From: Dehalococcoidia bacterium
GTDB lineage: Bacteria; Chloroflexota; Dehalococcoidia; GIF9; UBA5629
Direction: 5' to 3'
NCBI GenBank assembly: GCA_034429715.1
Contig: DAOUFR010000058.1
Span: 7,811 to 71,810, forward strand
DNA: 64,000 nucleotides
Shown: positions 31,179 through 47,135 of the stretch, one piece after another
Position numbering within the stretch: position 1 is the stretch's first letter
How the letters are laid out: the number at the start of each line of letters is the position of its first letter
Made by a program: the position numbers and the translations under genes
Notes under the pieces: generated by a model
Seen by the model: the letters and a program-made list of their open reading frames with translations, nothing else
The model's database searches: none
What the model was told of the DNA's origin: nothing

Positions 31179-32429
31179 CTAAATGCCGCCCTCGATACAG
31201 TATTCCCGCAGTGTGTTAAGGGCTGCGAAAAACTCCTTCATCATGGTGCCCACCGTGTACATACCGCGCTTTGTGACTGAAATTATGCTGTTTTTCTCCT
31301 GGATAACACCGGCAATTTTAAAGAATAGCAGCTCCGCCCATATCCTGGCGTGGATATCCGAATCGAAGCGCTGTTTGAACTGCTGCGTGCTCAGGCTCAT
31401 ACCGAATAACCTGGTCAGCATGTAGTAACGGTATTGCTCGGTAGCGGAGAGATGACGTGTGCGGACTATGGGCAACCTTTCTTCCGCGATCAGCTTATGG
31501 TAGCCGTCCAGCGAGAAGGAATTGACCAGGAAATCGCCTCCCAGGAAGCTGACGGACCCGGCGCCGACGCCGATATAGTCATCGTAGTCGATGATATATT
31601 CGTCGATCATGAGGTCGCCGCGCGAAAAGCACCAGGCTGTCGAAGCTTTGTATCCGCCGTCCATCAGCTCCTGCAGGATTATCTCGTAATATTGCTTTTC
31701 GCGTTTGGTATCCACCCGGCGGAATTTTTTGGTCAGCGCATCCAGTTTATGTGGAGAGGGCATGAGCGGGTAGAAAGTGGCCTGGTCGGTGCCGAGGTCC
31801 TTGAAGATTTTTATATCGGAGCGGAACTGCTCCGGTGTCTGTGTGGGGAAGTTGAACATGAGGTCCACGTTGACCGTATCGAATTTGCCCTGCGCCAGCT
31901 TAAGCTTCTGTATGGAGTCTTCGCCCTTGAAAAGCGTCCTGCCCATGGCTTTAAGAAGGGAGTTATCGAAGCTTTGAACACCGATGGAAAGCCGGTTGAC
32001 TCCCATCTGTTTCAGCTGATCAACGGTGTCAGGCGTCAGCTCGCGCGGTGTGGTCTCAAGCGAGATGCGCCTGATCTCGAATTTCGATCTGAGGAAATCG
32101 ACGAAGCCGGACAGCTCGTCCATGAGGACGGTGGGCGTGCCGCCCCCGAAATAGAAGTCGTTGAATTTGAAACCCAGCGCGGCGTACAGGTCGACTTCCC
32201 GGCGCAGGTCTGCGAAGTAAGCGCGGGCTTGATCCTCCTTGAACAGGTAACGGTTGAAGCAGCAGAAGGGACACAGGGTGCGGCAGAAAGGGATGTGGAT
32301 ATAGAGGGATACCCTGTCCCCCCGTATAATGCCCTCTGAAGCGATGCGGGAAAGGTCCGCATCGCCTGTAAACCTGAGGAACTTCTGGCCTTCGTAGCGG
32401 ACGACCGAGCCGGCAAATAAACTGATCAT
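31179..32429 (-). CDS. radical SAM enzyme, HemN/HemW-like (oxygen-independent coproporphyrinogen-III oxidase family)
   Basis: The CxxxCxxC motif (IHIPFCRTLCPFCCF) sits in a HemN-like N-terminus, and a HemN C-terminal domain follows. Confidence 0.7.
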   Translation of the reverse strand: MISLFAGSVVRYEGQKFLRFTGDADLSRIASEGIIRGDRVSLYIHIPFCRTLCPFCCFNRYLFKEDQARAYFADLRREVDLYAALGFKFNDFYFGGGTPTVLMDELSGFVDFLRSKFEIRRISLETTPRELTPDTVDQLKQMGVNRLSIGVQSFDNSLLKAMGRTLFKGEDSIQKLKLAQGKFDTVNVDLMFNFPTQTPEQFRSDIKIFKDLGTDQATFYPLMPSPHKLDALTKKFRRVDTKREKQYYEIILQELMDGGYKASTAWCFSRGDLMIDEYIIDYDDYIGVGAGSVSFLGGDFLVNSFSLDGYHKLIAEERLPIVRTRHLSATEQYRYYMLTRLFGMSLSTQQFKQRFDSDIHARIWAELLFFKIAGVIQEKNSIISVTKRGMYTVGTMMKEFFAALNTLREYCIEGGI

Positions 32430-32480
32430 GTTTATTGAATGTGCAGCAGCTTAAAATTATCTGTGGTCGAGTTTACCAAG

Positions 32481-33089
32481 CTAAGCAAGCAATCCGTACA
32501 AAATGGTTTGAACCATTCTGTCCCCGGCAGCCGTTAAGTCGAAGCTGCCATCTTTTAAACACCATTCATACAGGATACCCCGATAACTCATCATGATAAA
32601 CCGGGTGATTTCCGTAGCGTCCGTATCGTCTTTTAGTATGCCGACTTTTAAACACTCATCTATCTGTTCAAGCACAGTATTAAACAATATGCCCCTCTCT
32701 GCTGCCATCACAGGATCTTTTCTGCCGGCGCTGATCTGACTCTGCATAACCACTTTAATAAAATCCACACCCAGATTGTCCATGTACCGGGATACAGATG
32801 CGCATAAGAATTTGAGCTTGTCGATCCGGCTATCTATTTCAGGTAGGACAGGAATTACTTCATCTCTAATTAATTTATTTATCGCCATGAAGTGCTCCAT
32901 GATAACCGCGTCTTTGGACTTGAAATGGATATAGAATGTCCCCAACGAAACGCCGGATTTTCTGCAGATCTCACTGATGGTAACCCTGTCGTATCCCTTT
33001 TTTGAGAACAGCGTAAGGGATGTCTGGTAAATCTTCTTGTGCGTAGCCAGCGACTGTTTTTTTCGATGAGTGGACTTTTTATTATTCAT
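32481..33089 (-). CDS. TetR-family transcriptional regulator
   Basis: The HTH is TLFSKKGYDRVTISEICRKSGVSLGTFYIHFKSKD. Confidence 0.75.
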   Translation of the reverse strand: MNNKKSTHRKKQSLATHKKIYQTSLTLFSKKGYDRVTISEICRKSGVSLGTFYIHFKSKDAVIMEHFMAINKLIRDEVIPVLPEIDSRIDKLKFLCASVSRYMDNLGVDFIKVVMQSQISAGRKDPVMAAERGILFNTVLEQIDECLKVGILKDDTDATEITRFIMMSYRGILYEWCLKDGSFDLTAAGDRMVQTILYGLLA

Positions 33090-33154
33090 GATAGGTACCT
33101 TCGCTATACAGTTAAACTATTATATTTGTAACTAACGTGAATTACAATTCAGGC

Positions 33155-33206
33155 TTGACAATATTTTGATAGTAGAATAGAATACATTCACTGAATATAT
33201 TCTATT
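33155..33206 (+). promoter_or_regulatory. sigma70-like promoter (TTGACA-17-TAGAAT) overlapped by the inverted repeat AATAGAATA-N13-TATTCTATT (candidate TetR operator)
   Basis: TTGACA sits at 33155-33160 and TAGAAT at 33178-33183. The inverted-repeat arms sit at 33176-33184 and 33198-33206. Confidence 0.45.
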
Positions 33207-33221
33207 ATTAGGAGGCTGTTG

Positions 33222-33974
33222 ATGGATTTGGGATTAAAAAACAAAACTGCTTTAGTTACAGGCGCCGGGAGTGGTGTGGGGCGAGAGGTAACGCGAGTGC
33301 TATGTTCAGAGGGGGCCATTGTTGCCGCTGCCGATATAGATTTGAAGAAAGCAGAGCAAACGGTTGAGTTGATGCAAGGTCTTAATGGCAGGGCGTTCGC
33401 CTATGAAATGGATGTGATCAACTGGAATAAGGTGCAGGATACCGTAGCCCTTTTTATAAAGAAAGCAGGTCATATAGATATTCTGGTCAATAATGCAGGC
33501 TATGGAGTATATAAGACCTTTGATACCACAACTTATGATGACTGGATGACCGATATCAATGTTAATCTCATCGGATCGCTGAACTGCGCAAGGGCGGTGA
33601 TTTCTCATATGTTGGAAAATAAATATGGGAAGATTGTAAATGTAGTATCCGATGCTGGAAAGACTGGTGAACGCTTTTTAGTAACTTATTCTGCGGCAAA
33701 AGCGGCCGTTATCGCTTTTGCTAAAGCGCTGGCGAAGGAAACAGGCAGGAGCAATATCAACGTCAATTGTGTTGCGCTCAGCAGTATTAAGACGCCGCTT
33801 ATTTTACCTTTTCTTACTCCGGAAGCCGAGAAGAAGATGATCAAGAGTTATCCGCTTGGTAGATTGGGGCTTCCGGAAGACCCTGCGAGTTTAATTGTGT
33901 TCCTGGCGTCCGACAGGGCGTCATGGATAACGGGGCAGGCTTTTTCGGTCAATGGCGGATATGCCATGGTTTAG
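33222..33974 (+). CDS. short-chain dehydrogenase/reductase (3-oxoacyl/3-hydroxyacyl-CoA reductase-like)
   Basis: TGAGSGVG marks the NAD(P) site and the catalytic YxxxK lies in YSAAK. Confidence 0.75.
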   Translation: MDLGLKNKTALVTGAGSGVGREVTRVLCSEGAIVAAADIDLKKAEQTVELMQGLNGRAFAYEMDVINWNKVQDTVALFIKKAGHIDILVNNAGYGVYKTFDTTTYDDWMTDINVNLIGSLNCARAVISHMLENKYGKIVNVVSDAGKTGERFLVTYSAAKAAVIAFAKALAKETGRSNINVNCVALSSIKTPLILPFLTPEAEKKMIKSYPLGRLGLPEDPASLIVFLASDRASWITGQAFSVNGGYAMV

Positions 33975-34002
33975 GCTTTCAAATAGAAGGAAGAAGGTTG
34001 TG

Positions 34003-35280
34003 ATGAAAGAAGTCTATGTCATTGGATCGTATTCAACTGTGTTCAAACGCTGGCCTGAGAAATCCGTAAAAGACCTAACAAGAATGGCTTATCTGGGAGT
34101 GCTTGAGGATATGGGGCTTGATGGTATATATCCTGAGAGTACCTGGTTCTCCAATTGCGGCTGGGGGCACACAATTCCAAGAGTGGAGGATGATCCGGGG
34201 GTGCTCGGTCAGATGAATATAAGGGGCCAGGTTGCCTTGGCACCTCTGGTGAATGAAGGATTATTTCCCAGACATATTCCGATAACAAACATTGAAAGCG
34301 CCTGTGCCAGCGGTTCGGTTGCGTTTCACGGGGCTTGGAGGGATATCCTTTCGGGAAATGTCGAAATCGCCCTTGCAATAGGTGCAGAAAAAGTATTTTT
34401 TCCGAAACAGCTGGCTAAAGTAGTGGAGTTATTCTCGGGAGGCATCGATGTTACTCGGGTGAGCGAGCTTTTCGAACAATATAAAACAGTCGGCGCCGAA
34501 TACGGAAAGGAATGGGCGGCATCTCCCGGCCATACGCTTTTTATGGATGTTTATGCCACACTGGCAGCCAGGCATATGAAGAAATTTGGTACCACGGTAG
34601 AACAGCTGGCGGTTGTTGCATCCAAGAATCATTTTCACGGCTCCCTCAATCCTCTGGCACAGTATCGGTTTGAGGTACCGGTTGAGAAGGTATTAAACGA
34701 TTATATGGTCAGCTGGCCTCTAACACGGTCCATGTGCTCACCTCTTGGAGACGGCGCTGCCGCCGCCATAGTCTGCTCCGATAAATTCTTAAGAAAGCTT
34801 CCAAGTTCGGTTAAAAAACGCGCAGTTAAAATTTTAGCCAGCGTACCGGCATCCGGATGTGAACACGCTATAGATGAGCCGTCGATAACTAACTGGGCAT
34901 CTCAAAAAGCTTACAAAATGGCAGGTATAAAAGCTGACGATGTGTGCTTTGCTGAAGTCCATGACGCTTCCTCCTTTGCTGAAGTCAATCAGCTGGAGCA
35001 ACTGGGATTTTGCCCATTGGGAACTGGGGGTACATATTCAGAAAGCGGTGCAACCAGATTTGACGGTGAAAAACCCATAAATACATCGGGTGGATTGGAA
35101 TCAAAAGGGCATCCGATCGGAGCAACCGGTCTATCTCAAATCAATGAAATCGCGATCCAATTGAGAGGAGAGGCGGGCAACAGACAGGTGCGGCGGCCCA
35201 AAATTGGTTTAGTTGAAAACGGCGGCGGCCTCATTGGCTTTGAAGAAAGCTGCTGTGTAATAACGATTTTGAGTAAGTGA
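34003..35280 (+). CDS. thiolase-like protein (SCP-x / nsLTP-type)
   Basis: It has a thiolase fold with an active-site Cys in NIESACASGS and C-terminal motifs. An RBS precedes ATG 34003. Confidence 0.7.
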   Translation: MKEVYVIGSYSTVFKRWPEKSVKDLTRMAYLGVLEDMGLDGIYPESTWFSNCGWGHTIPRVEDDPGVLGQMNIRGQVALAPLVNEGLFPRHIPITNIESACASGSVAFHGAWRDILSGNVEIALAIGAEKVFFPKQLAKVVELFSGGIDVTRVSELFEQYKTVGAEYGKEWAASPGHTLFMDVYATLAARHMKKFGTTVEQLAVVASKNHFHGSLNPLAQYRFEVPVEKVLNDYMVSWPLTRSMCSPLGDGAAAAIVCSDKFLRKLPSSVKKRAVKILASVPASGCEHAIDEPSITNWASQKAYKMAGIKADDVCFAEVHDASSFAEVNQLEQLGFCPLGTGGTYSESGATRFDGEKPINTSGGLESKGHPIGATGLSQINEIAIQLRGEAGNRQVRRPKIGLVENGGGLIGFEESCCVITILSK

Positions 35281-35303
35281 GTTATCTGAGGAGGAGAAGG
35301 AAG

Positions 35304-36860
35304 ATGTCGGAAAATGTCACACTGCAATTTTTACTGACTAATTCATTATTAAAATTCAGAGAAAGGGTCTTTGCGAAAATTGGTGATAATGAATATACCT
35401 ATCTTGATGTCCATCTGTGTTCGAATCGTATTGCTAACGCTATAAAGAAGGCAGGTTTTGGGCGCGGTGATTGCGTTGGCACGATATTGGTAAATGGTAT
35501 CGAACTGCTGAGTTGCGTGTTCGGTATCTATAAAGCCGGAGCTGCCTCAGTGGCCATGAACGTTATGGTAGGTGACAACGATATCGTTTACATTATTAAC
35601 GACGCTAAAGTCAATCTATTGATTATTGATTCAGCTCTGGTAGACAGGATTTTGAGTCTCAAGCCAAAATGCCCCACCCTGAAAAAAATCGTTGTTGTGG
35701 GCGCTGCTACGACTGACGGCTATACCTCCTATGAAGACTTTCAGAGCGGCCAGCCGGATACGACTCCCATATTGACTGCAAAACCTGATGACAATGCGGT
35801 GATTGTATACACGGGTGGCACTACCGGAAAGCCAAAAGGTGTGATTCATACGCAACGTTCGGGCTGGAATTTTGTAATCGCACAAACTGTAGGATTGAAC
35901 TGGCTGCGGGAAGACTCACTGCTGATCATGACTCCTCTGGGCCATGCTGTGGGCGCCATTATGTTTAGCGGAGCCACTGTGGGGTGCAAATTTATCATTG
36001 AGAAGCAGTTTGATCCGTTTAAAATACTCGAAATCATAGAAAAAGAGCGGGTTCAAAAGGTATTCCTTGTTCCAACCATTATCTATGTCCTTCTCGATCT
36101 TTTAAAGCAGAAAAAGTACGATTTGAGCTCATTGAACAGTATTTATTATGGAGCATCTCCCATCTCTGCCAACAGGCTTAAGGAGGCTATTGACCAATTC
36201 GGTCCCATATTGATGCAAAAATATGGCCAAAGTGAATGTCCCAATATGGTTACTACATTATCGATTGCAGACCATCTGAATGCGCTGGAAAATCCCAAAT
36301 TATTGCTTAGCTGCGGCAGGCCCGACGTCATGGCCGATGTAAAAATATTTGATGACAATGATAAAGAACTGAAAGTTGGTGAATTGGGTGAGATTTGTGT
36401 TCGAACGCCGTTTTCTATGAAAGGTTATTTGAATCAACCTGAATTGACCAGGCAAACGCTGAGAAATGATTGGCTCCATACGGGCGATATGGGAAGAATG
36501 GATGAGAATGGGTATGTATATATTGTAGATAGAAAAAAAGACATGGTTATCAGCGGCGGTATGAACGTATATCCAGCCGAGGTCGAAGGTGTAATAAGTA
36601 AACATCCCAAGGTAAAGCAGGTTTCTGTTATCGGCATCCCCGATGAAAAGTGGGGTGAGGCGGTAACTGCCGTAATCATTCCCGATGGAGATCTGTCCGA
36701 GCAGGATATCAAGGATTTCTGCCGAAATAAGCTTTCAAAATACGCTCAACCAAAAATTATCGTGTTCCAGGAACAGCTGCCACTCACACTGCTGGGTAAA
36801 GTCGATAAAAAAGCTTTGAGAGCTCCGTTCTGGAAGGGCGTAGAAAGGGCAGTGCATTAA
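35304..36860 (+). CDS. AMP-dependent acyl-CoA synthetase/ligase
   Basis: The AMP-binding motif YTGGTTGKPKGV and the C-terminal motif (GEICVRTP...KGY) are present. Confidence 0.8.
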   Translation: MSENVTLQFLLTNSLLKFRERVFAKIGDNEYTYLDVHLCSNRIANAIKKAGFGRGDCVGTILVNGIELLSCVFGIYKAGAASVAMNVMVGDNDIVYIINDAKVNLLIIDSALVDRILSLKPKCPTLKKIVVVGAATTDGYTSYEDFQSGQPDTTPILTAKPDDNAVIVYTGGTTGKPKGVIHTQRSGWNFVIAQTVGLNWLREDSLLIMTPLGHAVGAIMFSGATVGCKFIIEKQFDPFKILEIIEKERVQKVFLVPTIIYVLLDLLKQKKYDLSSLNSIYYGASPISANRLKEAIDQFGPILMQKYGQSECPNMVTTLSIADHLNALENPKLLLSCGRPDVMADVKIFDDNDKELKVGELGEICVRTPFSMKGYLNQPELTRQTLRNDWLHTGDMGRMDENGYVYIVDRKKDMVISGGMNVYPAEVEGVISKHPKVKQVSVIGIPDEKWGEAVTAVIIPDGDLSEQDIKDFCRNKLSKYAQPKIIVFQEQLPLTLLGKVDKKALRAPFWKGVERAVH

Positions 36861-36900
36861 AAAGCAACTTATCGAGATTAGTGGTTGAAGGAGTAATAAA

Positions 36901-38052
36901 TTGGATTTCACATATTCAGAATTTCAAGAATCCACCAGGAAACTTGTTCATGAATGGGTAGAGAACGAGGTTAGACCGGAGGAATATCATCGTTTCACTT
37001 CAGGCGTATGGGATTCTGCTTTATTTCGCCGACTGGGTGAACTGGGTATTTCACAGATGCTGTTCTCTGAAGAGTGGGGTGGCGTCAATGCGGACTATCT
37101 CACATGGTGCCTTGTTCTGGAGACTGTGGCTCGCGGCGATCCCGAGATGGCAGGTTGCCTGATGGTTACGATGGCTAATGCAAGGCAAGTTGTTGAGACG
37201 GCGACGGAAGAACAGAAGGCGGCCTTCAAAGATAAATACCTGACGCCTGTAATCAACGCTGAATGCATGTGTTCGGGAGCGATTACGGAGCCGGAAGCAG
37301 GCACTGACGTTTCGCGTATACAGACAAAAGCCAACCTTGTTGACGATAAATGGATTATTAATGGAGAAAAAACTTATATAACTAATTCAGGACTGGAGAA
37401 TAACGTTTTTATAAGCGTACTTTGTGTTACCGATAACAAAGGATCGAAAGAGTTCAATTACATCTTCGTACCTACCGATACTCCAGGTATCACAATTAAT
37501 CCTATGAGGACCATGTACGGTTCCAGTCATGAGCTCGGGCAGATATTTTTTAATGATTGCTGTGTACCGGCATTTAATCTGCTCGGTCAAAGGGGGAAAG
37601 GTCAAAAATATGTGGTGCGAGATGTTTTTGCTACTGCCAGGATAGGTGTCGCTTCTTTAGCACTGGGTGTAGCCGATGCCTGCTTCGAAGATGCGCTGAG
37701 TTATGCTAAAAATCGTATAGCGTTCGGGCGTCCCATCTCCAAGCATCAGTATATTAAATTTTCGCTTGCTGAAATGGCTCTCACAAATGAGTTGAGCAGA
37801 ATGATGCGGGATAAAGCTGCCATGTCTGTAGTGGGCGGCACTTATAACATGAAATTGAGCTCGATGTCGAAATTTTTCTGCTGTGAATCAGCCAATCAAG
37901 TGGCTTATAAAGCAATTCAGATACACGGTGGATTAGGCCTGATGGATGAAGTGCGCGTGTCACGGTTCTACAGGTTTGTCAGAGGAATGACAATCGCTGA
38001 CGGTACTTCGGAAATACAAAGACACATCATTGCGAGAGAACTGGATATATAG
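36901..38052 (+). CDS. acyl-CoA dehydrogenase
   Basis: An ACAD fold is present with the catalytic Glu region near the C-terminus (IADGTSEIQRHIIAREL). A TTG start follows a GAAGGAG RBS. Confidence 0.8.
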   Translation: MDFTYSEFQESTRKLVHEWVENEVRPEEYHRFTSGVWDSALFRRLGELGISQMLFSEEWGGVNADYLTWCLVLETVARGDPEMAGCLMVTMANARQVVETATEEQKAAFKDKYLTPVINAECMCSGAITEPEAGTDVSRIQTKANLVDDKWIINGEKTYITNSGLENNVFISVLCVTDNKGSKEFNYIFVPTDTPGITINPMRTMYGSSHELGQIFFNDCCVPAFNLLGQRGKGQKYVVRDVFATARIGVASLALGVADACFEDALSYAKNRIAFGRPISKHQYIKFSLAEMALTNELSRMMRDKAAMSVVGGTYNMKLSSMSKFFCCESANQVAYKAIQIHGGLGLMDEVRVSRFYRFVRGMTIADGTSEIQRHIIARELDI

Positions 38053-38071
38053 GTAATTACAATATATAAAT

Positions 38072-38884
38072 GTGCCGGGCAAGCTGTGCAGCGGCAACAG
38101 GAGGTGCGTTATTTCAACTGATACACTGATCTTCGATAGAGATGGACAGGTGGGTATAATCACTTTTAATCGACCTGAGCGACTTAATGCTATTAACTGG
38201 CAGATGGCACATGATTTTTCAGTTCTCTTTGATGATATCTATGATGATGAAAGTATAAAAACCATTATCCTCACCGGTTCCGGCAAAGGGTTCTGCGCCG
38301 GAGCCGATATCGTGGAAATAATGGACCCGGATGCCAGGCATATATCAGAGAATATGGGTTATGAAATTTTTAATAAAATTGAGAATCTTCGGAAGCCGGT
38401 CATTGCCGCCATTAACGGTAGCTGCAACGGGGGTGGATTGGAATTAGCATTATGCTGTGATTTTCGTATAGCTTCGGAGAAGGCAAATTTCGGTTTAGGC
38501 GAAGTTAAAATAGGTGTCATGCCGGCGGCCGGCGGCACTGCGCGTTTACCACGTTTGATCGGGGTGGCGAGGGCCAAAGAGATGCTGTATTTCGGGAACC
38601 GTATCAATGCAAAGGAAGCTGCCGAGATAGGTCTGATAAACCGGGTCGTCAGCCATGATGCTTTGCTGGAAGAAACTCGAAAATGGGCAAATGAGCTTGC
38701 CGAAAGAGCGCCGTTATCGCTTCAGATGTTAAAGTGGTGTGTCAACTACGGCATGCAGATGGATCTTCCAGGCGCGCTGCAATACGAGGCAAGATGCGCG
38801 GCCACTCTACGAAAAAGCGAGGATTTTAAAGAAGGCGTCAGCGCGTTTGTCGAAAAACGCAGACCTGACTTTAAAGGGATGTAA
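38072..38884 (+). CDS. enoyl-CoA hydratase/isomerase family protein (start codon uncertain)
   Basis: A crotonase signature is present (GIITFNRPERLNAIN, ILTGSGKGFCAGADI). An AGGAGG sequence inside the track ORF suggests the true start lies downstream of 38072. Confidence 0.7.
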   Translation: MPGKLCSGNRRCVISTDTLIFDRDGQVGIITFNRPERLNAINWQMAHDFSVLFDDIYDDESIKTIILTGSGKGFCAGADIVEIMDPDARHISENMGYEIFNKIENLRKPVIAAINGSCNGGGLELALCCDFRIASEKANFGLGEVKIGVMPAAGGTARLPRLIGVARAKEMLYFGNRINAKEAAEIGLINRVVSHDALLEETRKWANELAERAPLSLQMLKWCVNYGMQMDLPGALQYEARCAATLRKSEDFKEGVSAFVEKRRPDFKGM

Positions 38885-38989
38885 TTCCTGAGGCCATAAT
38901 ATCCAGGCCTTGTGAATCTGCCACGTGCTTTGGTGATATGGATTCCAAAAGGTGCACCATCATTTAGCTTTAATGAGGAGAACATTGTC

Positions 38990-40177
38990 ATGCAAGCCCT
39001 CTCGGGATTAAGAGTATTGGATCTCTGCCATTTAGGTCCCGGTATGTATGCCACCATGATACTGGGCGATTTCGGCGCCGAGGTCATAAAAATTGCGAGA
39101 CCAACTGATAATATTGATGCGTTCAAAGACGATCGAGTTGCGTGGAGCCTGGGCAGAGTTCTGTATTCCAATCATCGCGCCTATAATCGAAATAAACAGA
39201 GCATGATTTTAAATTTAAAATCTCCTGAAGGAAAGGAGATTTTTTACAGGCTCTGCAAAACTTCAGATATTATCGTCGAAGGATTCAGGCCGGGTATCAC
39301 CAAAAAACTTAGAATAGACTACGAGTCCGTTAGAAAAATTAATACCAGCATAATATATGCGTCATTAAGCGGATATGGACAGGACGGTCCATATGTAGAG
39401 ATGCCGGGGCATGATCTGAACTACACTGCGATGAGTGGCGTATTGAATATGATTGGGAATCCACAGGCAGCCCCGGTAATCCCGATGAATTTCATAGCAG
39501 ATCTTGCCGGCGCCGCCTTACATGCAACCATCGGGATATTGATCGCCCTTGAAGCCAGGCGAAAGACCGGGAAGGGGCAGTACATCGATATCTCCTATCT
39601 TGACAGCGTTCTTTCCTTGGCTACGCCTTTCATCTTCGATCATATGAATTACGGCGTGGAATATGAACGCGGCAGTTCGCCATTCAACGGAGGATATCCC
39701 TGCTACAACATATACAGGACGAAAGATGGCAAATATATCACTATAGGTTGTATTGAACCCGTATTCTGGATCAATTTATGCCGTTTCATCGGCAGGGAAG
39801 ATTTTATTCCGGATCAACTATGCGAGGCAGAAAAAAAGCAGCAAATATTTAGTTATATATGCGATTTTTTTCTCAATAAAAATCGTGATGAGTGGTTCGA
39901 ACTGATGAAAGACAAAAATATACCTGTCGGAAAGGTCTATGACCTTAAAGAGCTTCCATTCGATCAGCAGATACAGCACAGGAAAATGCTGAAGGAAATT
40001 AAAATTGTTGGAGAGCGTGCCGAAAAGGTGGTAGATACCGGCATTAAGCTATCAGAGACGCCTGGAGGAATTTCCAGAGCGTCTCCTTTATCGGGAGAAC
40101 ATACAGAAACTATTTTATTGCAGTTAGGTTACAATAAATCTGAAATTGAAGAACTCCGAAACAAAGGCATTATTTAA
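38990..40177 (+). CDS. family III CoA-transferase (CaiB/BaiF/BbsEF-like)
   Basis: The N-terminus is LSGLRVLDLCHLGPGMYATMILGDFGAEVIKI and the catalytic Asp region is present. GAGGAG precedes ATG 38990. Confidence 0.8.
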   Translation: MQALSGLRVLDLCHLGPGMYATMILGDFGAEVIKIARPTDNIDAFKDDRVAWSLGRVLYSNHRAYNRNKQSMILNLKSPEGKEIFYRLCKTSDIIVEGFRPGITKKLRIDYESVRKINTSIIYASLSGYGQDGPYVEMPGHDLNYTAMSGVLNMIGNPQAAPVIPMNFIADLAGAALHATIGILIALEARRKTGKGQYIDISYLDSVLSLATPFIFDHMNYGVEYERGSSPFNGGYPCYNIYRTKDGKYITIGCIEPVFWINLCRFIGREDFIPDQLCEAEKKQQIFSYICDFFLNKNRDEWFELMKDKNIPVGKVYDLKELPFDQQIQHRKMLKEIKIVGERAEKVVDTGIKLSETPGGISRASPLSGEHTETILLQLGYNKSEIEELRNKGII

Positions 40178-40243
40178 ATGACCAGCGCATAGCCGAGCTC
40201 ATCTGAGAAATCGTACGTATTTGATCTGCATAAGCATATCAAG

Positions 40244-41539
40244 CTATTTGGCTTCCAACAATCCCATAGCGCGGTCCACCTCGCGGGCGCGGTGGTAATC
40301 AGCGTTGAAGTATTTGGACGACCACAGGTAGCCGAAGCTGCTGAGGAAGCCGATACCGGATATGACGAGGAATGACGTTTGTATGTTAACGGCGTCGGAA
40401 ACAGCCCCCATCAGTATGGGACCCCACATGCCGCCCAGGATGTAGCCGGTGAGCATATAGAGACCCATGGCCGTGGAGCGCTGATAGGCGGGCACGATCT
40501 CCTGCACCGCGTTGAGCTGGGCTGCGACAAAGGCGGAGGTGAAGAACACGCCGATGGCGAATACCGGCAGGGAAACGAAGTAAGTGCCCGCCGCCATGAA
40601 GATGCTGGCCAGCAGCATGACCACAACGATGACCAGTACTTTGTTGCGCGGGTTATTCTGAGAGACCTTATCCGTCACCCATCCGCCCAGCGGCATGGCG
40701 ATGATAGCCGTTAGAGCAAGGCCGGCCGAGACTGAGCTGGCCAGCACCGTGTCCATGCCCATAGTGCGGTTCAGCAGCACCGGCACCCAGGGCACATAGC
40801 CCAGCACGTAGCACATCTCGAGCGCGATGGTAAGATAAAGGATGGGCAGGGTTTTGATCTTTACGAACTCCTTGAGCGTCGAACCCAATGCGTTGCTGCG
40901 GGGTACATCCCCCGCTTTGTGAAGCGCCGATTTGTCTATCTTATAGTCGGGCATGAACCAGGCCAGGATGCCGAAGATGATGCCCGGTGCGGCCACAGCC
41001 ATGAACGCGGCCTGCCAGCCGAAGCTCTTGGTGACGAAACCCCCGATCAGGAAGCCGAAGGCCGAACCAAAGGGTATAGCAGCCACCCAGATACCGGTAA
41101 CCAGCGCGCGCCTGGCCTTGTTGATCATAGCGGCGATAAGGGCCATGCCACCCGAGACGAAACTGGCCTCACCGACTCCCACCACCGTCCTGGTGGCCAG
41201 CAACTGCCCGAAGTTAATGCAGAAGCCGGACAGCAGGCTGGCCACGCTCCAGATAACGGACATCAACGAGATCATTTTGGACCGGCTCCAGCGGTCGATA
41301 AGGTAGGACAGCGGAAGCGCAAAGACCGCTACCCCGATAAGCACCACAGACATCAGCCAGCCCACCTCGGTATCGCTCAGCCCCAGGTCGGCCTTTAAGG
41401 CCGGCGTCATGGGGCCGATCACCGACCGCAGCGCGTAGTCCATCATATAGAGGACGAAAAGTACAACTATCGTGTACCAGACCTGCCACGGCTTCACTTT
41501 AATCAGGACATCGCTATTTTCCGTTTGCCCTTTTTTCAT
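40244..41539 (-). CDS. MFS transporter
   Basis: It has 12 predicted TM helices and the MFS signature. GGAGG precedes ATG 41539. Confidence 0.75.
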   Translation of the reverse strand: MKKGQTENSDVLIKVKPWQVWYTIVVLFVLYMMDYALRSVIGPMTPALKADLGLSDTEVGWLMSVVLIGVAVFALPLSYLIDRWSRSKMISLMSVIWSVASLLSGFCINFGQLLATRTVVGVGEASFVSGGMALIAAMINKARRALVTGIWVAAIPFGSAFGFLIGGFVTKSFGWQAAFMAVAAPGIIFGILAWFMPDYKIDKSALHKAGDVPRSNALGSTLKEFVKIKTLPILYLTIALEMCYVLGYVPWVPVLLNRTMGMDTVLASSVSAGLALTAIIAMPLGGWVTDKVSQNNPRNKVLVIVVVMLLASIFMAAGTYFVSLPVFAIGVFFTSAFVAAQLNAVQEIVPAYQRSTAMGLYMLTGYILGGMWGPILMGAVSDAVNIQTSFLVISGIGFLSSFGYLWSSKYFNADYHRAREVDRAMGLLEAK

Positions 41540-41604
41540 CACAACCTCCGACATTTATTGTGGCAGCGGCATATACGCGCCGCCCCATATAATAGGAATA
41601 TATT

Positions 41605-42801
41605 CTATTTTTTTACAACAGTGGCCGAGCAATTACCCTGTTTGCCGGCATTGACTGTGAAACCGACTTTAGCGCCCTCGATCTGCCTCGGTCCGGAAAC
41701 GCCCCTCATCTGCCATGTAAGCTCGCATACCTGGGCCATGGCCTGGGCCGGGATAGCCTCTCCAAAAGAGGCACAGCCGCCGCTGGTATTGACCGGCATC
41801 CTGCCCCCCATCCCCGTAACGCCTTCCCGCAACAGCTTCTCAGCGTCTCCCCGCTTGCAGAGCCCGATCTCCTCGTACCAGCCCAGCTCGAAGGCAGAGC
41901 TGAGATCGTATACTTCCGCCAGGTCCAGGTCTTCGGGTCCGATACCAGCTTCTTCGTAGGCGTTGTAGGCCGCCCGGACTCCCATGCCGTTGCTGAACTC
42001 GAGATCACCCGAGTCGCTGGCAATATCCAGGCCGTAGCCTCCGCTCCTGGGATCGGGGTATTTGGGAGTGGCTATTCCCACGCTGGCCAGTCTGACAGGC
42101 TTACGGATGTGTTTTTTAGCCGCCTTCATGCTGCTGAGGACGATTGCAGCTGCGCCGTCGCTGGTCGCGCATAGCTCATACAGTCGCAGAGGATAAGTTA
42201 CCATGGGTGATTTGAGCACATCCTCGACGGTAAACGTTTTCTTGAAGCGCGCAAGGGGATTGAGCGATCCGAATTTGGCATTTTTTACCTTCACCAGGGC
42301 AAGGTCGTTTTCGGTCATTCCATAATGGTGCATCCTGTATGTAGCCATGAAAGCAAAACCCGTGGGATTGGTCAGCCCCAGTATCCTGAAACGCTGTGAA
42401 TCCAGGTCGTTCGGATCATCTTCCCGGCCAACAGTGGTGACACCGAAGAAACCGGAGGGCGAAATGCTGGCCGCCACGACCAGTACATAATCACAGAAGC
42501 CGGAGTTGATGTAGGCCTGCGCTGTCTTCAACGCGTATCCGCCTGTTGCGCAGGCGTTATACACATTGACCACCGGTATGCCGTTATTGCCTATTTTTTG
42601 CGATAATCTGCAGCCGGCTAACAGGCCATCGACACCGCTCCATGGATCCGAACCTGCCACGACAAACTGGATGTCTTTCCACTCCAGGCCGGCGTCTTTC
42701 AAAGCTTTTTGAGCCACCTCAAGATTCAGCTCGGGAACGCTCTTATCTTTTATTTTTCCCCAGGGATGCATAGCAACTCCCAGAATAGCTACTTCATTCA
42801 T
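41605..42801 (-). CDS. thiolase (SCP-x type; catalytic partner of the DUF35 protein)
   Basis: A thiolase fold is present with the active-site Cys in VYNACATGG. It lies immediately downstream of the DUF35 gene. Confidence 0.8.
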   Translation of the reverse strand: MNEVAILGVAMHPWGKIKDKSVPELNLEVAQKALKDAGLEWKDIQFVVAGSDPWSGVDGLLAGCRLSQKIGNNGIPVVNVYNACATGGYALKTAQAYINSGFCDYVLVVAASISPSGFFGVTTVGREDDPNDLDSQRFRILGLTNPTGFAFMATYRMHHYGMTENDLALVKVKNAKFGSLNPLARFKKTFTVEDVLKSPMVTYPLRLYELCATSDGAAAIVLSSMKAAKKHIRKPVRLASVGIATPKYPDPRSGGYGLDIASDSGDLEFSNGMGVRAAYNAYEEAGIGPEDLDLAEVYDLSSAFELGWYEEIGLCKRGDAEKLLREGVTGMGGRMPVNTSGGCASFGEAIPAQAMAQVCELTWQMRGVSGPRQIEGAKVGFTVNAGKQGNCSATVVKK

Positions 42802-42841
42802 TATTTCACCTCATTATTTAACGCTGATATTTGTGTTGCCC

Positions 42842-43291
42842 TCATTTGTGAGCAGGCCTGAACTTCCATGCCATAACGTCGTTGCCCTGGCTGTCCTCAT
42901 ACAGCTTCTCGATTACGACGTCCATATCCATGCCGACCTCCAGGTTTTTCTCGTCATAGCCGGAGGAAATCTGGCCTGTGATGCTGATGCCTTCAGGCAG
43001 GCTGACCATCCCGACCCCGAAGGGAACAAATGGATCCGGTGCGTGGTATGGCGGGGGCGGCGAAAAATAGTTGATGGAATAGGCCTCCAGTTTGCCTTTA
43101 TTGCTGAGCATCACCGATTGCATGGTACCGTCTTTTTTGCAGTTCGGATTGCGGCATACCTGTGCCGGCGGGAAGAAATAGCCGTTGCACAAAGAGCATT
43201 TGCTGGCTATGATATGCGGCTCCCTGGGCGGCATGGTGAACCAGCCCTGGATGGCGGGAACCTGTTGTTTTTGCGCGTTTTGATCGCTCAT
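42842..43291 (-). CDS. DUF35 Zn-ribbon/OB-fold protein (BbsA-like thiolase partner)
   Basis: It carries CSLCNGYFFPPAQVCRNPNC (a rubredoxin-like Zn ribbon) followed by an OB-fold region. An AAGGAGG RBS is present. Confidence 0.75.
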   Translation of the reverse strand: MSDQNAQKQQVPAIQGWFTMPPREPHIIASKCSLCNGYFFPPAQVCRNPNCKKDGTMQSVMLSNKGKLEAYSINYFSPPPPYHAPDPFVPFGVGMVSLPEGISITGQISSGYDEKNLEVGMDMDVVIEKLYEDSQGNDVMAWKFRPAHK

Positions 43292-43327
43292 GGATGACCT
43301 CCTTAATTCTTATCCGATCTTTGTTTC

Positions 43328-44215
43328 TTACGTTAGCTTCGTGGTATCGAAAGCAGTCTTTGCCCCATCGGGCATGTAGTCGTAGAACCCTTTGCCTGCC
43401 TTCTTGCCCAGGCGTCCGGCCTGTACCATCTTGTCGATCAGTGTAGATGTCGGAGCATACGATTCAACTCCCATAGCCTTGAACGCCTGGCCGACACGCT
43501 GATAGACGTCCAGCCCTGCGTAGTCCGCCATCTCGAACGGGCCCAGAGTCCATCCGTACCCATATTTCATACCTGCATCGACATCCTGAACCGTAGCAAT
43601 GCCCTGTTCCACCAGGTTAAGGGCCTCGCGGAAGGCCGTGCCACTGATACGGTTCATGATGAAACCGGGTATATCTTTCATGACTTTCACCGGATATTTA
43701 TTAAGCGAAAGTATGAAATCCACGCTTTTCTGGAAAACCGCTGCGGATGTTTTTTCTCCTTTGATCACTTCAACCAGCAGCATCAGAGGTACCGGACCAA
43801 AGAAGTGCAGCCCCACCATCCTCTCGGGATGCTGTGCATCCATGGCCAGCCGTGTAATACGTATGCTGGATGTGTTGCTGGCTAGAATGGTCTCCGCCGG
43901 ACAGATTCTTTCCAGCTCCTGGAAAAGTCCTTTCTTGAGTTTTTCGTCTTCATAAACCGCTTCGATGACCCACGGGCACTTTGCGGCGACGGCAAGATCT
44001 TTTACTGCGCTGATCCTCTCCTGTACGGCTTTAGCCGGATCCCTGAGCTGGCCCTTGCTCTCGAGTTTCCCGGTCGACCAGCGGATATCGGCGAGGGCTT
44101 TTTCAACAGCCTCAGCATTGGAATCATACAGGTAGACGCGGTAGCCATTCTGGGCGGCAACCTGTGCGATGCCGGTGCCCATAAAGCCGGCGCCGACGAC
44201 GAGGACGTTTTCCAT
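43328..44215 (-). CDS. 3-hydroxyacyl-CoA dehydrogenase (paralog of the 17887-18771 gene)
   Basis: VLVVGAGFMGTGIAQV is present. It is roughly 65% identical to the other Hbd by eye. Confidence 0.8.
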   Translation of the reverse strand: MENVLVVGAGFMGTGIAQVAAQNGYRVYLYDSNAEAVEKALADIRWSTGKLESKGQLRDPAKAVQERISAVKDLAVAAKCPWVIEAVYEDEKLKKGLFQELERICPAETILASNTSSIRITRLAMDAQHPERMVGLHFFGPVPLMLLVEVIKGEKTSAAVFQKSVDFILSLNKYPVKVMKDIPGFIMNRISGTAFREALNLVEQGIATVQDVDAGMKYGYGWTLGPFEMADYAGLDVYQRVGQAFKAMGVESYAPTSTLIDKMVQAGRLGKKAGKGFYDYMPDGAKTAFDTTKLT

Positions 44216-44312
44216 TTATTATTCTCCTTCTGACTTTTATTACCTGTCTAACGGGAATCAGCCGTCTCAACCGGCAAACCTTCGATTTTCAAACTTCAGC
44301 TTGTGGTAGGTG

Positions 44313-45608
44313 TCATTTTTCGGCCAGCAGATGCTCGTGTTTGACCTTATCCATGTCAGCAATATAGGGCCGGGAAGCCATGAAATAGCACAGTCCGCCC
44401 AAAACGCCGCCCAGGGTAGCAATTATCAGCGCGGTGCCCAGCGCCTGCGCATCCTGCCCCAGCGCATTGGAGATGGCTCCGACCAGGTAAGGGCTCCAGC
44501 CGCCGCCGAATACGTACATGAAAAAGATCATGGCGCCCCATACCAGGCCTTTCTGGGCTACCGGGGCGACATCCTGAGCCATGGCCATGATGCAGGGAAT
44601 CGCCATCACATTTAAAATGCCGTAGACAATGATGAGGACCATGCCCAGCGGCCCTTTTAACTGTAAGAACAGGGCTGCTGCAAGGAAAAAGGCGCTGAGT
44701 ATAATGGTGATGGCCGGCACATAGAGCCTGCCCCTGGGATTTTTCCTGAACCACAAATCCGCCAGGAATCCGCCCAGTGGCGAGCCGATGATGGCAGCCA
44801 GGACGATAGGAACAAGTATGCTGTTGGCGGCCTGCACATCCACTCCCCAGGCACGTCCGATAAAAGCCGGCGACCAGAAGAGAAATGACATCGACATAAC
44901 GTTGGCCAGGCCGTAGCCGACGAAGGTCCAGACCAGCGTGGGGATTTTAAAGAGACCGATTATTGAGTGGCCGAAATCCACCTTCATGCCGGGCGCCTGG
45001 TCTGCTTCCACGGTCTTGTAATCCTTCATAAAGAATGCCATCAGACCCAGGGCGATGCCCGGTATGGCGAAGATGAAGAACGGCGCCTGCCATCCGTACT
45101 GCTTGGCTACAATGCCTCCGGCGAGTGAACCCAGCGCTATTCCCAGCGGCACAGCTGCATTGAACACGCCCATGGCTATGCCGCGCGCCTTTTTCGAGTA
45201 AGCGGCGCCGATCATGGCCGAGCCGCCCGGCACAAATCCGGCTTCACCCACTCCGACAAGACTGCGGGGGACCAGGAAGCTCCAGAAATTCCAGGCAAAT
45301 CCGTTGGCGGCAGTGAACATACTCCAGAGCAGCGCCATTATGCCGACAGCCTTGCGCCTGCTCCAGCGGTCTATCAGATAGGAAATGGGAAATGAGAAGA
45401 CCGCGATGCTCAAAAGGAATACCGTCCCGAGGATACCCATTTCACTATCATTAAGCCCCAGGGCGGCTTTCATGGGCTCTACAACGGCGGCCACGACCTG
45501 CCGGTCCATGAAGTTAACCATCAGGAGGAGAGTACAGGTGATCAGTATATATAGTTTTCCCCCAGCTCCGGCCTTATATTCTTTTGGCGCACCTGTATCT
45601 GTCGACAC
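44313..45608 (-). CDS. MFS transporter (paralog of the 40244 gene)
   Basis: TM topology and MFS motifs fit. An AGGAGG RBS precedes the GTG start. Confidence 0.75.
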   Translation of the reverse strand: MSTDTGAPKEYKAGAGGKLYILITCTLLLMVNFMDRQVVAAVVEPMKAALGLNDSEMGILGTVFLLSIAVFSFPISYLIDRWSRRKAVGIMALLWSMFTAANGFAWNFWSFLVPRSLVGVGEAGFVPGGSAMIGAAYSKKARGIAMGVFNAAVPLGIALGSLAGGIVAKQYGWQAPFFIFAIPGIALGLMAFFMKDYKTVEADQAPGMKVDFGHSIIGLFKIPTLVWTFVGYGLANVMSMSFLFWSPAFIGRAWGVDVQAANSILVPIVLAAIIGSPLGGFLADLWFRKNPRGRLYVPAITIILSAFFLAAALFLQLKGPLGMVLIIVYGILNVMAIPCIMAMAQDVAPVAQKGLVWGAMIFFMYVFGGGWSPYLVGAISNALGQDAQALGTALIIATLGGVLGGLCYFMASRPYIADMDKVKHEHLLAEK

Positions 45609-45667
45609 TAACCACCTCCTTTTCAGTGGGCTGTTATCGTATCGTTCTGCCGATTATTATTCTTTTT

Positions 45668-47029
45668 TTACCAGTCCAGGCCTTTGGATCTGCGGACCTT
45701 CCTGTAATGGTCCATGGTCTGTTCGAAGGCCTCGGCCCTGGCCAGTGTGTCCTGGGGATTGAAAACACGCTTGTCGATGATGTCGCCCTCGACCCACAGG
45801 GTGGGGACGTCCAGCTTCTTGAGCAGGAAATCCTGTATCGGTCGGAGATTGGAACTGGCTGCGCGGCAGGAGATAAGAGGATGCAGGAAAAATCCGTCGG
45901 CGCGATACCCCCCGGCGTAATTCAGATAGCATGCTACGATGGGATTATTGATGCTGTTCTTCCGGGCATGCTGATGTATGTTGAATACGAAGTTACGAGA
46001 GAGGCGCGCCAGCTTCTCTACGGGATTGCTGACCCTGCTCAGGTCCGGTGGTTTGGGGGCGTGATAGCCGTAGCCTTCGAAGACGAAATTCCAGCCCCTC
46101 TCGGCCAGGCTGTCGAAGAACTTGAGGCTGTGCCAGGGGGGCAACTCGGCGAAGATCAGCCGGTACCTCTCGGGATAGTTGATGGCTGCTTCTTTATTTT
46201 TAATCCTCTCCTGTACCTCGGCCAGCATGTCCTGGTACAATTTAAGAGACATCTTCATATCACCGGCGAAGAAAAGCGACGGCGGCATGCTGCTCCAGAA
46301 ATCTGTGCTGTGCATGGGCCCGGGTATGGCCTTGCGGGCCTCGCTGATCTGCCAAACGGTTTCGTGGATCTGAATGGCCAGGTCCATCAGCTCTTCGAAC
46401 CTGTTCCAGTCCATCTTCTTCTTGAAAAGTTTCTCCAGGAAGGAGATGTAATCGTTGAGCTCTTTAACCAGGAACTTCACCTGATACCCTTCGAGATCCT
46501 CCTCCGAGCCCTCGGCAGTGCCCATCACCGGCATCTCAAGGCACCATTGCGGCGCATCGAAGTACCTGGCCAGCGCCTGGAACCACTTGAAGCGCGCATC
46601 GCAGAAGATGCCCGAGCCGAGCAATAGCTGTGGTCTGGCCATTCCGCCCAGCGGGGCGTCGGGTGGAATATTGCCGTTGTTTTCCTTCATCATGCGGCAG
46701 GAGTAGCCGATAGTGGCCCTGCCGTATCCGCACATATGGTTGGGGAAGCCGTCAGAGTCCGAGGCGTCTAAGAATTGCTCGGCTGTGCCGGAGGCCGCCA
46801 GCAGCGTGGAATAATTCTCGGGATATACGATATTGAGGTCCATGGCCTTGAGAGGGATATCCCCTTCGAAGATGGTGAGCATGGACCAAACAGTAGGTCG
46901 GCCCTCTTTGCTGGCCTGCAGCGTATCGACATAGTCCTGCTGTACCAGGTTGCGCAGCGGGTACATGCTCTTCAGGCGGTTGATGGCCCTTTTCTTCTCG
47001 GTTTTAACCGTAGTTTCTGTTTCACTCAT
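45668..47029 (-). CDS. benzoyl-CoA reductase BzdO/BcrB-like (2-hydroxyacyl-CoA dehydratase family) large subunit, extra paralog
   Basis: It is about 80% identical by eye to the 52390-53751 gene across its full length. GGGAG precedes the ATG at 47029. Confidence 0.7.
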   Translation of the reverse strand: MSETETTVKTEKKRAINRLKSMYPLRNLVQQDYVDTLQASKEGRPTVWSMLTIFEGDIPLKAMDLNIVYPENYSTLLAASGTAEQFLDASDSDGFPNHMCGYGRATIGYSCRMMKENNGNIPPDAPLGGMARPQLLLGSGIFCDARFKWFQALARYFDAPQWCLEMPVMGTAEGSEEDLEGYQVKFLVKELNDYISFLEKLFKKKMDWNRFEELMDLAIQIHETVWQISEARKAIPGPMHSTDFWSSMPPSLFFAGDMKMSLKLYQDMLAEVQERIKNKEAAINYPERYRLIFAELPPWHSLKFFDSLAERGWNFVFEGYGYHAPKPPDLSRVSNPVEKLARLSRNFVFNIHQHARKNSINNPIVACYLNYAGGYRADGFFLHPLISCRAASSNLRPIQDFLLKKLDVPTLWVEGDIIDKRVFNPQDTLARAEAFEQTMDHYRKVRRSKGLDW

Positions 47030-47135
47030 AAAATACACTCCCAGTGGAGAGAAGCATTCTCCAGGCGAGAAAGCGACTACTCTCAGGACGCAGTGAATAC
47101 GAAGCGGATAAAAGGCGAAACTTCGATACCGGTTG

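Follow-up and report, generated by a model that had tools for sequence, protein, structure and literature searches.

A horizontally acquired beta-oxidation cassette with a probable racemase-type family-III protein splits a conserved operon in a Dehalococcoidia genome

We analysed a 64-kb stretch of contig DAOUFR010000058.1 from a Dehalococcoidia bacterium (the window, to which all positions refer). The subject is the interval 33222–45608, which a sequence-only reading by a model had described as a single catabolic island resembling the benzylsuccinate (bbs) beta-oxidation genes, next to genes that resemble benzoyl-CoA reductase (BCR). Two convergently transcribed units make up the interval. 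Its plus-strand half belongs to a cassette (32430–40242) that is a horizontally acquired, TetR-controlled unit splitting a conserved operon, and its minus-strand half (40244–45608) is the distal part of that operon. About the composite structure, its boundaries and the other structural conclusions we have little doubt. As an overall explanation we somewhat favour an acquired, TetR-regulated cassette for branched or alpha-substituted acids beside a separate operon tail. One of the cassette proteins has the family-III CoA-transferase fold and is probably of a racemase type.

Two units with different histories

Genes were taken from a six-frame listing of open reading frames (ORFs) and assigned by Pfam and NCBIfam scans. 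All genes that had been listed for the interval are present at their positions, and the surroundings (BCR-like genes, five AMP-forming ligases, two TetR regulators and one PadR regulator) could be confirmed as well. The plus-strand operon opens with a short-chain dehydrogenase/reductase (SDR; 33222–33974, Pfam adh_short), which would act as a 3-hydroxyacyl-CoA dehydrogenase. It is followed by an SCP-x-type thiolase of 425 aa (Thl1; 34003–35280, Thiolase_N/Thiolase_C_1), an AMP-forming acyl-CoA ligase (35277–36860) resembling FadD8 of Mycobacterium tuberculosis, an acyl-CoA dehydrogenase (ACAD; 36901–38052, Pfam ACAD domains) similar to short-chain acyl-CoA dehydrogenase (SCAD) and butyryl-CoA dehydrogenase, and a crotonase-type enoyl-CoA hydratase (ECH; 38072–38884, ECH_1, 251 bits). 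The last gene encodes the family-III protein (P0001, 395 aa; 38990–40177), which matches CoA_transf_3 (PF02515) over its full length with 319 bits. The Thl1 ORF is open from 33952 and its database gene call begins at Met18; the family-III ORF is open from 38912, with a database gene call of 395 aa. A TetR-family gene (32481–33089, minus strand, TetR_N) diverges from the operon.

Sister contigs were obtained through the members of 90%-identity clusters of the window proteins and a metagenome scan. For the PurH, thiolase-like and BCR-like proteins of the window, the cluster members come from metagenome-assembled genomes labelled "Dehalococcoidia bacterium". The resulting set comprises 13 distinct Dehalococcoidia contigs that span the insertion site at about 90% nucleotide identity to the window. 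In blastn comparisons with them, positions 25210–32312 and 40253–52805 align at 90–91% identity and 32313–40252 matches none, so that the cassette is present in 0 of the 13. Six of these contigs have an empty site, where a gene for a transporter of the major facilitator superfamily (MFS; 40244–41554 in the window, minus strand, Pfam MFS_1, 92–97% identity in sister contigs) and a radical-SAM gene (31179–32429, 416 aa) are co-directional and about 27 bp apart; the other seven carry a gene for a Peripla_BP_6 solute-binding protein. Fine mapping against one empty-site contig (L058) showed that homology stops at 40243 and picks up at 32417. One breakpoint (40243) lies 1 nt beyond the stop codon of the MFS gene, the other (32429) at the start codon of the radical-SAM gene, a conserved-operon gene at the opposite edge of the cassette. 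The 7.8-kb cassette is thus lodged in a native spacer of about 22 bp (27 bp if measured to the start codon).

The two halves also differ in composition. The cassette has a GC content of 44.6% versus 54.5–56.4% in the flanks, and the drop coincides with the plus-strand operon. GC at third codon positions is 44–53% in the TetR gene and the cassette operon versus 63–79% in the minus-strand genes. Together with the different evolutionary histories seen in the sister contigs, this contradicts the idea of a single island. Clusters at 90% identity contain one to four members for the cassette proteins and 46–66 for the native neighbours, with the exception of the native Hbd-type 3-hydroxyacyl-CoA dehydrogenase, whose cluster has a single member. 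The loci that harbor the closest family-III homologs have a GC content of 42–47%, similar to that of the cassette.

The lack of a match in the sister contigs, the sharp breakpoints and the alternative contents of the site together indicate a strain-specific acquisition at a recombination hotspot, and the comparison with the sister genomes marks the insertion as recent. No tRNA, Rfam match, integrase or transposase was found in the cassette, and its junctions show no direct or inverted repeats and no target duplication.

Looking at the site itself, the MFS/radical-SAM junction (40243/32429) occurs with three alternative contents in L054–L064 and the window: empty, a solute-binding-protein gene, or the cassette. 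In the sister contigs L056 and L057 there are extra insertions elsewhere in the operon: one of about 1.7 kb separates the thiolase-like gene from the MFS gene, and one of about 3 kb separates the Hbd gene from the DUF35 gene.

The family-III protein

The sequence-only reading had called P0001 a family-III CoA-transferase. The Pfam family is right, the chemistry implied by the name probably not. Among solved structures, the protein scores highest with MCR, the alpha-methylacyl-CoA racemase of M. tuberculosis (194 bits), followed by SUGCT (167), Frc (162), BbsF (128) and BbsE (98). MCR uses Asp156 and the pair His126/Glu241 for catalysis (PMC8142540). By alignment, MCR His126/Asp127, Asp156 and Glu241 correspond to His141/Asp142 (in PGHDLNY), Asp171 and Glu256 (in CIEPVF) of the window protein. 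The E. coli proteins CaiB, Frc and YfdE have a Tyr at the His position (AY[NED]..xQ) and do not have the Glu at the 241 position. We surveyed these residues in 170 family-III sequences. His and Glu occur together in all 135 sequences of the His/Glu type and are both missing in all 35 of the Tyr/Phe type, CaiB, Frc and YfdE included. In a neighbour-joining (distance) tree with MCR as the one characterised racemase, MCR nests within the His/Glu clade of the window protein, apart from CaiB, Frc and YfdE. The mean identity to MCR is 36.5% in this clade versus 28.7% for the other sequences. A transferase would also be redundant in the cassette, because a dedicated ligase sits in the same operon. 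Judged by residues and clade, the protein is probably of the alpha-methylacyl-CoA racemase type.

Several points weigh against this assignment. The window protein is only about 33% identical to MCR, and MCR Met188, a residue of the methionine-rich acyl-binding surface, is replaced by Tyr203 (Tyr, Phe, Leu or Met elsewhere in the clade). It retains the catalytic Asp171, which is needed for transferase chemistry. Foldseek ranks SUGCT first (query-normalised TM-score 0.87–0.89), with BbsEF at 0.86 and MCR at 0.80–0.83. In the locus L051, the same SDR–thiolase pair adjoins a family-III protein of the Phe (transferase) type, which implies that the SDR–thiolase module can also operate with transferases. 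Finally, we know of no clade member from an anaerobe that has been assayed. As for the structural ranking, the AlphaFold model of the protein (pLDDT 87.5) gives TM-scores of 0.80–0.91 to MCR, and since all family members including Frc fall at about 0.8–0.9, the fold cannot separate racemase from transferase.

The His/Glu-type clade is widespread in Chloroflexota and Desulfobacterota; a scan of GTDB genomes gave closest representatives at 53–54% identity. Seven independent loci have a family-III homolog with 53–62% identity in the company of ECH, ACAD, SDR and thiolase genes, and most of them also hold a DUF35 gene; L003/L004 and L005/L006 are repeats and enter this count once each. Homologs at 44% identity or less are not found in such settings. 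In L002 and L008 the gene just before the family-III homolog encodes an ECH, as in the cassette; in L005/L006 the ECH gene is one position further upstream, with an ACAD gene in between.

Two of the homologous neighbourhoods contain additional catabolic genes. In L003 (14563–20369) and L004, a racemase-type protein, DUF35, thiolase, ACAD and ECH stand beside a B12-dependent mutase similar to methylmalonyl-CoA mutase (MCM) and MeaB, and the module also adjoins genes for acetyl-CoA hydrolase/transferase, electron-transferring flavoprotein (ETF) and FixCX. This hints at a carbon-skeleton rearrangement of branched acyl-CoAs. In L052 (2827–13588) and L053, a Thl1-type thiolase (67% identity) occurs with two family-III genes, the first of the His/Glu type, in an operon that also encodes SDR, ECH, two HGD-D proteins and a single activator ATPase. 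This layout looks like a 2-hydroxyacyl-CoA-dehydratase system joined to the same SDR–ECH–thiolase module.

The label "CaiB/BaiF CoA-transferase" on proteins of this large His/Glu clade from uncultured anaerobes is probably wrong as to chemistry; their residues speak for racemisation or epimerisation. Relabelling the clade would alter pathway reconstructions for metagenome-assembled genomes (MAGs) of Chloroflexota and Desulfobacterota, and would indicate that methyl-branched acids are consumed where oxygen is absent.

Other cassette enzymes and the control region

The SDR has two main solved relatives, the (3R)-hydroxyacyl-CoA dehydrogenase domain of yeast MFE-2 (170 bits) and BbsD (162 bits), and is 64% identical to the SDR of L051 that adjoins a Thl1-type thiolase. 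Thl1 itself has the Cys nucleophile, a HDAS motif that lacks the acid/base Cys (HDAF in BbsB) and a GHP motif; the combination C/HDA/GHP is found in 120 of 120 homologs surveyed. It is 33% identical to BbsB, which is among its top two solved matches, and 35% identical to zebrafish SCP2-thiolase. The family consists of proteins of about 425 aa in Thermodesulfobacteriota, Desulfomonilaceae and other lineages, and one of the homologs is named "propanoyl-CoA C-acyltransferase" in UniRef. The Thl1-type gene has no adjoining DUF35 gene in L051–L053; L051 does have a DUF35 gene, which lies about 3 kb further upstream and accompanies two different thiolase-like genes. We considered a DUF35 domain fused to or hidden in Thl1 and rejected it, as the extra length of the protein is due to internal insertions. 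Thl1 is plausibly a thiolase of a BbsB-like variant.

Among solved structures the ligase comes closest to FadD8 of M. tuberculosis (363 bits), a CoA ligase for medium/long-chain fatty acids. The NCBIfam score of the cassette ligase for PRK06187 (469 bits) is just below the cut-off of 476, which three ligases outside the cassette do reach. The ACAD scores 203 bits with SCAD, 183 with medium-chain acyl-CoA dehydrogenase, 150 with ACADSB and 148 with isobutyryl-CoA dehydrogenase; members of its 90% cluster carry the JGI names "butyryl-CoA" and "short/branched chain acyl-CoA dehydrogenase". The closest solved relatives of the ECH are 3-hydroxypropionyl-CoA dehydratase, short-chain enoyl-CoA hydratases and EchA8.

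The cassette appears to have its own regulation, consisting of the divergent TetR gene and a promoter match overlapped by a palindrome. The promoter-like sequence TTGACA-17-TAGAAT (33155–33183, plus strand) agrees with the consensus at 11 of 12 positions and is the best match in the region 31–49.5 kb. Overlapping it are two 15-nt arms (33176–33190 and 33192–33206) that are 93% complementary, and this palindrome (33176–33206) may be the operator of the TetR protein. Next come an AGGAGG ribosome-binding site and the SDR start codon (ATG). The best full-length solved relatives of the TetR protein are the acyl-CoA-sensing repressors MbdR and FadR (FadR/YsiA), and the protein is probably an acyl-CoA-responsive repressor, with an acyl-CoA as its presumed effector. 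The divergent gene and the candidate operator over the -10 element are shared with FadR/MbdR-type repressors, whereas the sequence similarity to them is low (36–46 bits). In L051 the TetR–SDR–thiolase layout recurs, with identities of 33%, 64% and 70%, respectively.

Proposed function and competing explanations

Together, the six cassette enzymes would make up one complete cycle of activation and beta-oxidation. The FadD8-like ligase would convert the acid to its acyl-CoA, and the racemase-type protein would interconvert the 2R and 2S epimers. The SCAD-like ACAD, the crotonase and the SDR-type dehydrogenase would then carry out the oxidation steps, and the DUF35-independent, SCP-x/BbsB-like thiolase would release propionyl-CoA or acetyl-CoA. 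Given the racemase-type residues and the clade, the cassette is most likely a self-contained cycle for 2-methyl-branched or alpha-substituted aliphatic acids. For the substrate class as such, 2-methyl-branched or otherwise alpha-substituted aliphatic carboxylic acids, we see about an even chance. Two considerations pull in the other direction: the substrate cannot be read from the sequence, and both ACAD and ECH are nearest to enzymes for straight short chains, not to those of the branched-chain ACADSB type.

Branched-chain beta-oxidation relies on AMACR, MFE-2 and SCPx. The cassette resembles such a system in the family-III fold with its His/Asp/Glu set and its place in the MCR clade, and in the combination of an SDR nearest to MFE-2 with an SCP-x-type thiolase. 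Unlike that system, its hydratase is a crotonase and not the hydratase-2 of MFE-2, an ACAD replaces the acyl-CoA oxidase, and all enzymes are encoded in one TetR-regulated operon of an uncultured, anaerobic Chloroflexota host. AMACR converts 2R- into 2S-methylacyl-CoA (PMC6182659), the kind of reaction that P0001 would perform.

The competing idea that comes closest to the sequence-only reading, and which we regard as unlikely, is that of one bbs-like island. In this view the family-III protein is a CoA-transferase for an aromatic, alicyclic or arylalkyl acid, and modified beta-oxidation supplies an aryl-CoA to the adjacent BCR-like reductase. In the bbs operon, BbsEF, BbsG, BbsH, BbsCD and BbsAB catalyse the beta-oxidation of benzylsuccinate (PMC10818641). 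The likeness is real at the level of the enzyme set, since both systems combine a family-III protein, an ACAD, a crotonase, an SDR and an SCP-x-type thiolase for alpha-substituted acyl-CoAs. BbsD and BbsB are within the top two solved matches of the SDR and Thl1, Thl1 and BbsB have the HDA motif in common, and the best solved match of the TetR protein, weak at 46 bits, is MbdR, a sensor of 3-methylbenzoyl-CoA. The cassette also adjoins the BCR-like genes and several ligases, and the DUF35/thiolase-like pair is truly part of a conserved BCR-linked operon.

Orthology to Bbs proteins, however, was not found. NCBIfam equivalog cut-offs were not reached for Bbs, BadH, cyclohexanecarboxyl-CoA dehydrogenase or others, and the only models passed in this comparison were the generic subfamily models PRK06059 (by Thl2) and PRK06187 (by three ligases outside the cassette). 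With the BbsB model Thl1 scores 182 and Thl2, the thiolase-like protein of the minus-strand half, 170 versus a cut-off of 750 bits, and the BbsA model gives 28 versus 250 bits. The window thiolases are 33% identical to BbsB versus 32–35% to fish SCP2-thiolase. Thl1 has no DUF35 neighbour and Thl2 lacks both catalytic His of BbsB, so neither corresponds to BbsAB at the equivalog level. There is one SDR gene (162 bits to BbsD) in place of a BbsCD pair. A BbsEF-like transferase pair was not found either; the single family-III gene is racemase-type and scores higher with MCR than with BbsF or BbsE. The cassette further differs from bbs in having a ligase, which is FadD8-like and not of the benzoate or phenylacetate type, and in the absence of bss genes: the only radical-SAM gene (31179–32429) has no adjoining glycyl-radical enzyme, and the window contains no ORF of the size of such an enzyme. 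The plus-strand operon is missing from all 13 sister contigs, though these keep the flanking operon and, where they reach far enough upstream (L042/62, L043, L045, L046/54, L055, L058), the BCR-like genes. A link to BCR therefore does not hold for the plus-strand operon and applies only to the DUF35/thiolase-like pair, the Hbd gene and both MFS genes. That an operon adjoins BCR-like genes in one MAG is weak evidence for an aromatic pathway.

It is also improbable that the cassette serves ordinary beta-oxidation of short or medium straight chains, with the family-III protein as a true CoA-transferase (for example succinyl- or acetyl-CoA:acid) beside the ligase. The sequence-only reading had set the module apart from fatty-acid beta-oxidation, and this stands insofar as the SDR-type dehydrogenase, the SCP-x-type thiolases and the family-III protein differ from the classical FadAB type. 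It does not stand for the ligase, the ACAD, the ECH and the Hbd-type dehydrogenase, whose nearest relatives are enzymes of ordinary fatty-acid metabolism (FadD8, SCAD/Bcd, crotonase and Hbd). The fatty-acid type of the ligase, the SCAD/Bcd-like ACAD, the crotonase-like ECH, the conserved Asp171 and the transferases SUGCT and Frc as top structural neighbours all fit a straight-chain pathway. Opposed to this are the His and Glu at the catalytic positions of MCR, where all Tyr/Phe-type proteins, including three characterised transferases, have other residues, and the position of the protein in the MCR clade. An SDR-type dehydrogenase with an SCP-x-type thiolase would moreover be an unusual set for straight chains, and a ligase plus a transferase for one acid would be redundant.

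A further possibility, which we consider very doubtful, is that the racemase-type enzyme epimerises a bulkier thioester such as (1-methylalkyl)succinyl-CoA, 2-arylpropionyl-CoA or a steroid or isoprenoid side chain, so that the substrates would be hydrocarbon-derived or isoprenoid acids. MCR accepts 2-arylpropionyl-CoAs and long 2-methylacyl-CoAs, as seen also in solved complexes. For methylalkylsuccinates, epimerisation by a racemase has been proposed (PMC6776118). The ligase is similar to FadD enzymes for medium and long chains, and the homologous module of L003/L004 adjoins the MCM-like mutase and MeaB. By contrast, neither a fumarate-adding glycyl-radical enzyme nor a mutase or carboxyltransferase is encoded in the window, the ACAD and ECH are short-chain in appearance, and no steroid-specific sequence feature was seen. 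Hardly any credence is due to a chimeric assembly of two organisms, which the MAG origin of the contig and the abrupt GC change at both ends of the segment might suggest, because both junctions lie within one contig exactly at gene boundaries without a shared repeat, the cassette proteins are recorded from an NCBI and a Logan assembly and listed as one 78,398-bp contig, and related genomes hold other contents at the same site, as expected of a real recombination hotspot.

Seen as an acquired unit for branched or alpha-substituted acids, the cassette is a fairly ordinary accessory catabolic unit, and no connection between it and aromatic-ring reduction could be demonstrated. Beta-oxidation cassettes of this accessory kind are common, as are family-III proteins without an assigned role, and a specialist would find little surprise in it.

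The conserved operon and its thiolase-like/DUF35 pair

The minus-strand half is the end of a long conserved operon, at the beginning of which stand a ligase and BCR-like genes. In relatives the order is BCR-like genes, PadR, ligase, HGD-D, MFS, (Hbd), DUF35, thiolase-like, MFS, radical SAM, tocopherol-cyclase-like and ECH. In the window, the MFS gene at the cassette border is preceded on the minus strand by the genes for the thiolase-like protein Thl2 (41605–42801, SCP-x fold), a DUF35 protein with Zn ribbon and OB fold (42842–43291, OB_ChsH2_C and zf-ChsH2), the Hbd-type dehydrogenase (43328–44215, 3HCDH_N/3HCDH) and a second MFS transporter (44313–45608, MFS_1), which is kept in the sister contigs. 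The two transporters are 34% identical to each other.

The sequence-only reading had spoken of DUF35/thiolase pairs. A tblastn search with five DUF35 proteins found no second DUF35 gene in the 64-kb window, and the cassette is packed too tightly to accommodate one, which leaves a single pair. The DUF35 protein, adjoining Thl2, has a four-Cys Zn ribbon (CxxC...CxxxxC). Thl2 passes the NCBIfam model PRK06059 ("lipid-transfer protein") with 480 bits versus a cut-off of 424. In alignment with SCP2-thiolase and BbsB it keeps Cys84, while HDCF is changed to YDLS (Tyr298) and GHP to GEA (Glu348), so that it departs from SCP2/SCP-x thiolases at two of three motifs. This is a property of the whole clade: C / YD[LI] / GE[ACS] replaces the thiolase pattern Cys/HDC/GHP in 121 of 121 homologs with at least 53% identity.

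The aldolases Ltp2 (YDHF) and Sal (YDCY), which have DUF35 partners, use a Tyr at the first position of the HDCF motif as their catalytic base, and SCP2-thiolase-like proteins (SLP; YDCF) have a Tyr there too (PMC12329534). Thl2 shares this Tyr with them, as well as an adjacent standalone DUF35 protein with an intact Zn ribbon. Its AlphaFold model (pLDDT 86.6) has the SCP2-thiolase fold, with TM-scores of 0.80–0.86 to Ltp2-ChsH2, Sal-Shy, SLP, the archaeal thiolase/HMGCS/DUF35 complex and PhlABC. As all members of the thiolase superfamily score alike (about 0.8–0.9), the fold cannot separate a thiolase from an aldolase here. Other features set Thl2 apart from the aldolases. Its YDL motif has no Cys or His at the third position and a Glu stands for the His of GHP, its sequence matches SCP2-thiolases (165 bits) better than Ltp2 (99 bits), and its DUF35 partner is not fused to a MaoC hydratase, with no MaoC gene nearby. 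Because Ltp2, Sal and SLP are without the thiolase cysteines while Thl2 retains its nucleophilic Cys84, the chemistry of Thl2 is uncertain, and the Cys/Tyr/Glu thiolase-like protein with its DUF35 partner is a concrete candidate for enzymology. A bolder proposal, quite doubtful in our estimate, is that the His/Glu clade represents an undescribed anaerobic pathway for methyl-branched (isoprenoid- or alkylsuccinate-derived) acids, and that Thl2/DUF35 is a new C–C-cleaving enzyme, aldolase-like or acyl-transferring, which acts on the product of the BCR-like reductase.

The Hbd gene is absent from L042–L044, L062–L064 and L055 and present in L045–L047, L054, L056–L058, L060 and L061; being missing in several sister genomes, it is dispensable. 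A second Hbd-type dehydrogenase (17887–18867), 67% identical to the one at 43328–44215, is located beside a divergent ECH-family gene (17887–19671 for both).

The BCR-like genes occupy 45668–47038 and 49511–53751, on either side of the PadR gene (48764–49327). In all, the window encodes two BcrAD-type ATPases, three HGD-D proteins and five AMP-forming ligases. The BCR-like subunits are far below the NCBIfam equivalog cut-offs (BzdN 185 versus 454, BzdO 71 versus 449 and BzdQ 183 versus 380 bits). The presence of BCR-like and beta-oxidation genes in Dehalococcoidia is known from earlier genome surveys (PMC5736913, PMC10116835). The two alpha-like HGD-D subunits (45668–47038 and 52390–53751) are paralogs with 79% identity, each directly downstream of its own AMP-forming ligase (47136–48695 and 53870–55387); these ligases are 33% identical. 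A single beta-like subunit and a single ATPase pair are found alongside the two alpha-like subunits. This suggests that ligase and alpha subunit form exchangeable modules for different substrates.

Other features of the window

The region 29169–32429 contains the radical-SAM gene, a weakly tocopherol-cyclase-like gene (341 aa) and an ECH gene (290 aa), which form the downstream end of the BCR-like operon in the sister contigs. In the window these three genes are separated from it by the cassette and stand instead behind the TetR gene, which has the same orientation. A signalling cluster (21396–28334) with four FHA-domain proteins, a Ser/Thr kinase, a PP2C phosphatase and an FHA-plus-Trans_reg_C regulator directly adjoins the catabolic operon and is kept in the sister contigs. 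Positions 1–9300 form a second stretch of low GC (45.5%), which encodes an amidohydrolase, an FrhB-like protein, an indolepyruvate-type 2-oxoacid:ferredoxin oxidoreductase, a TetR regulator and two HpaB-family proteins that are possibly similar to 4-hydroxybutyryl-CoA dehydratase. This stretch may be another accessory island.

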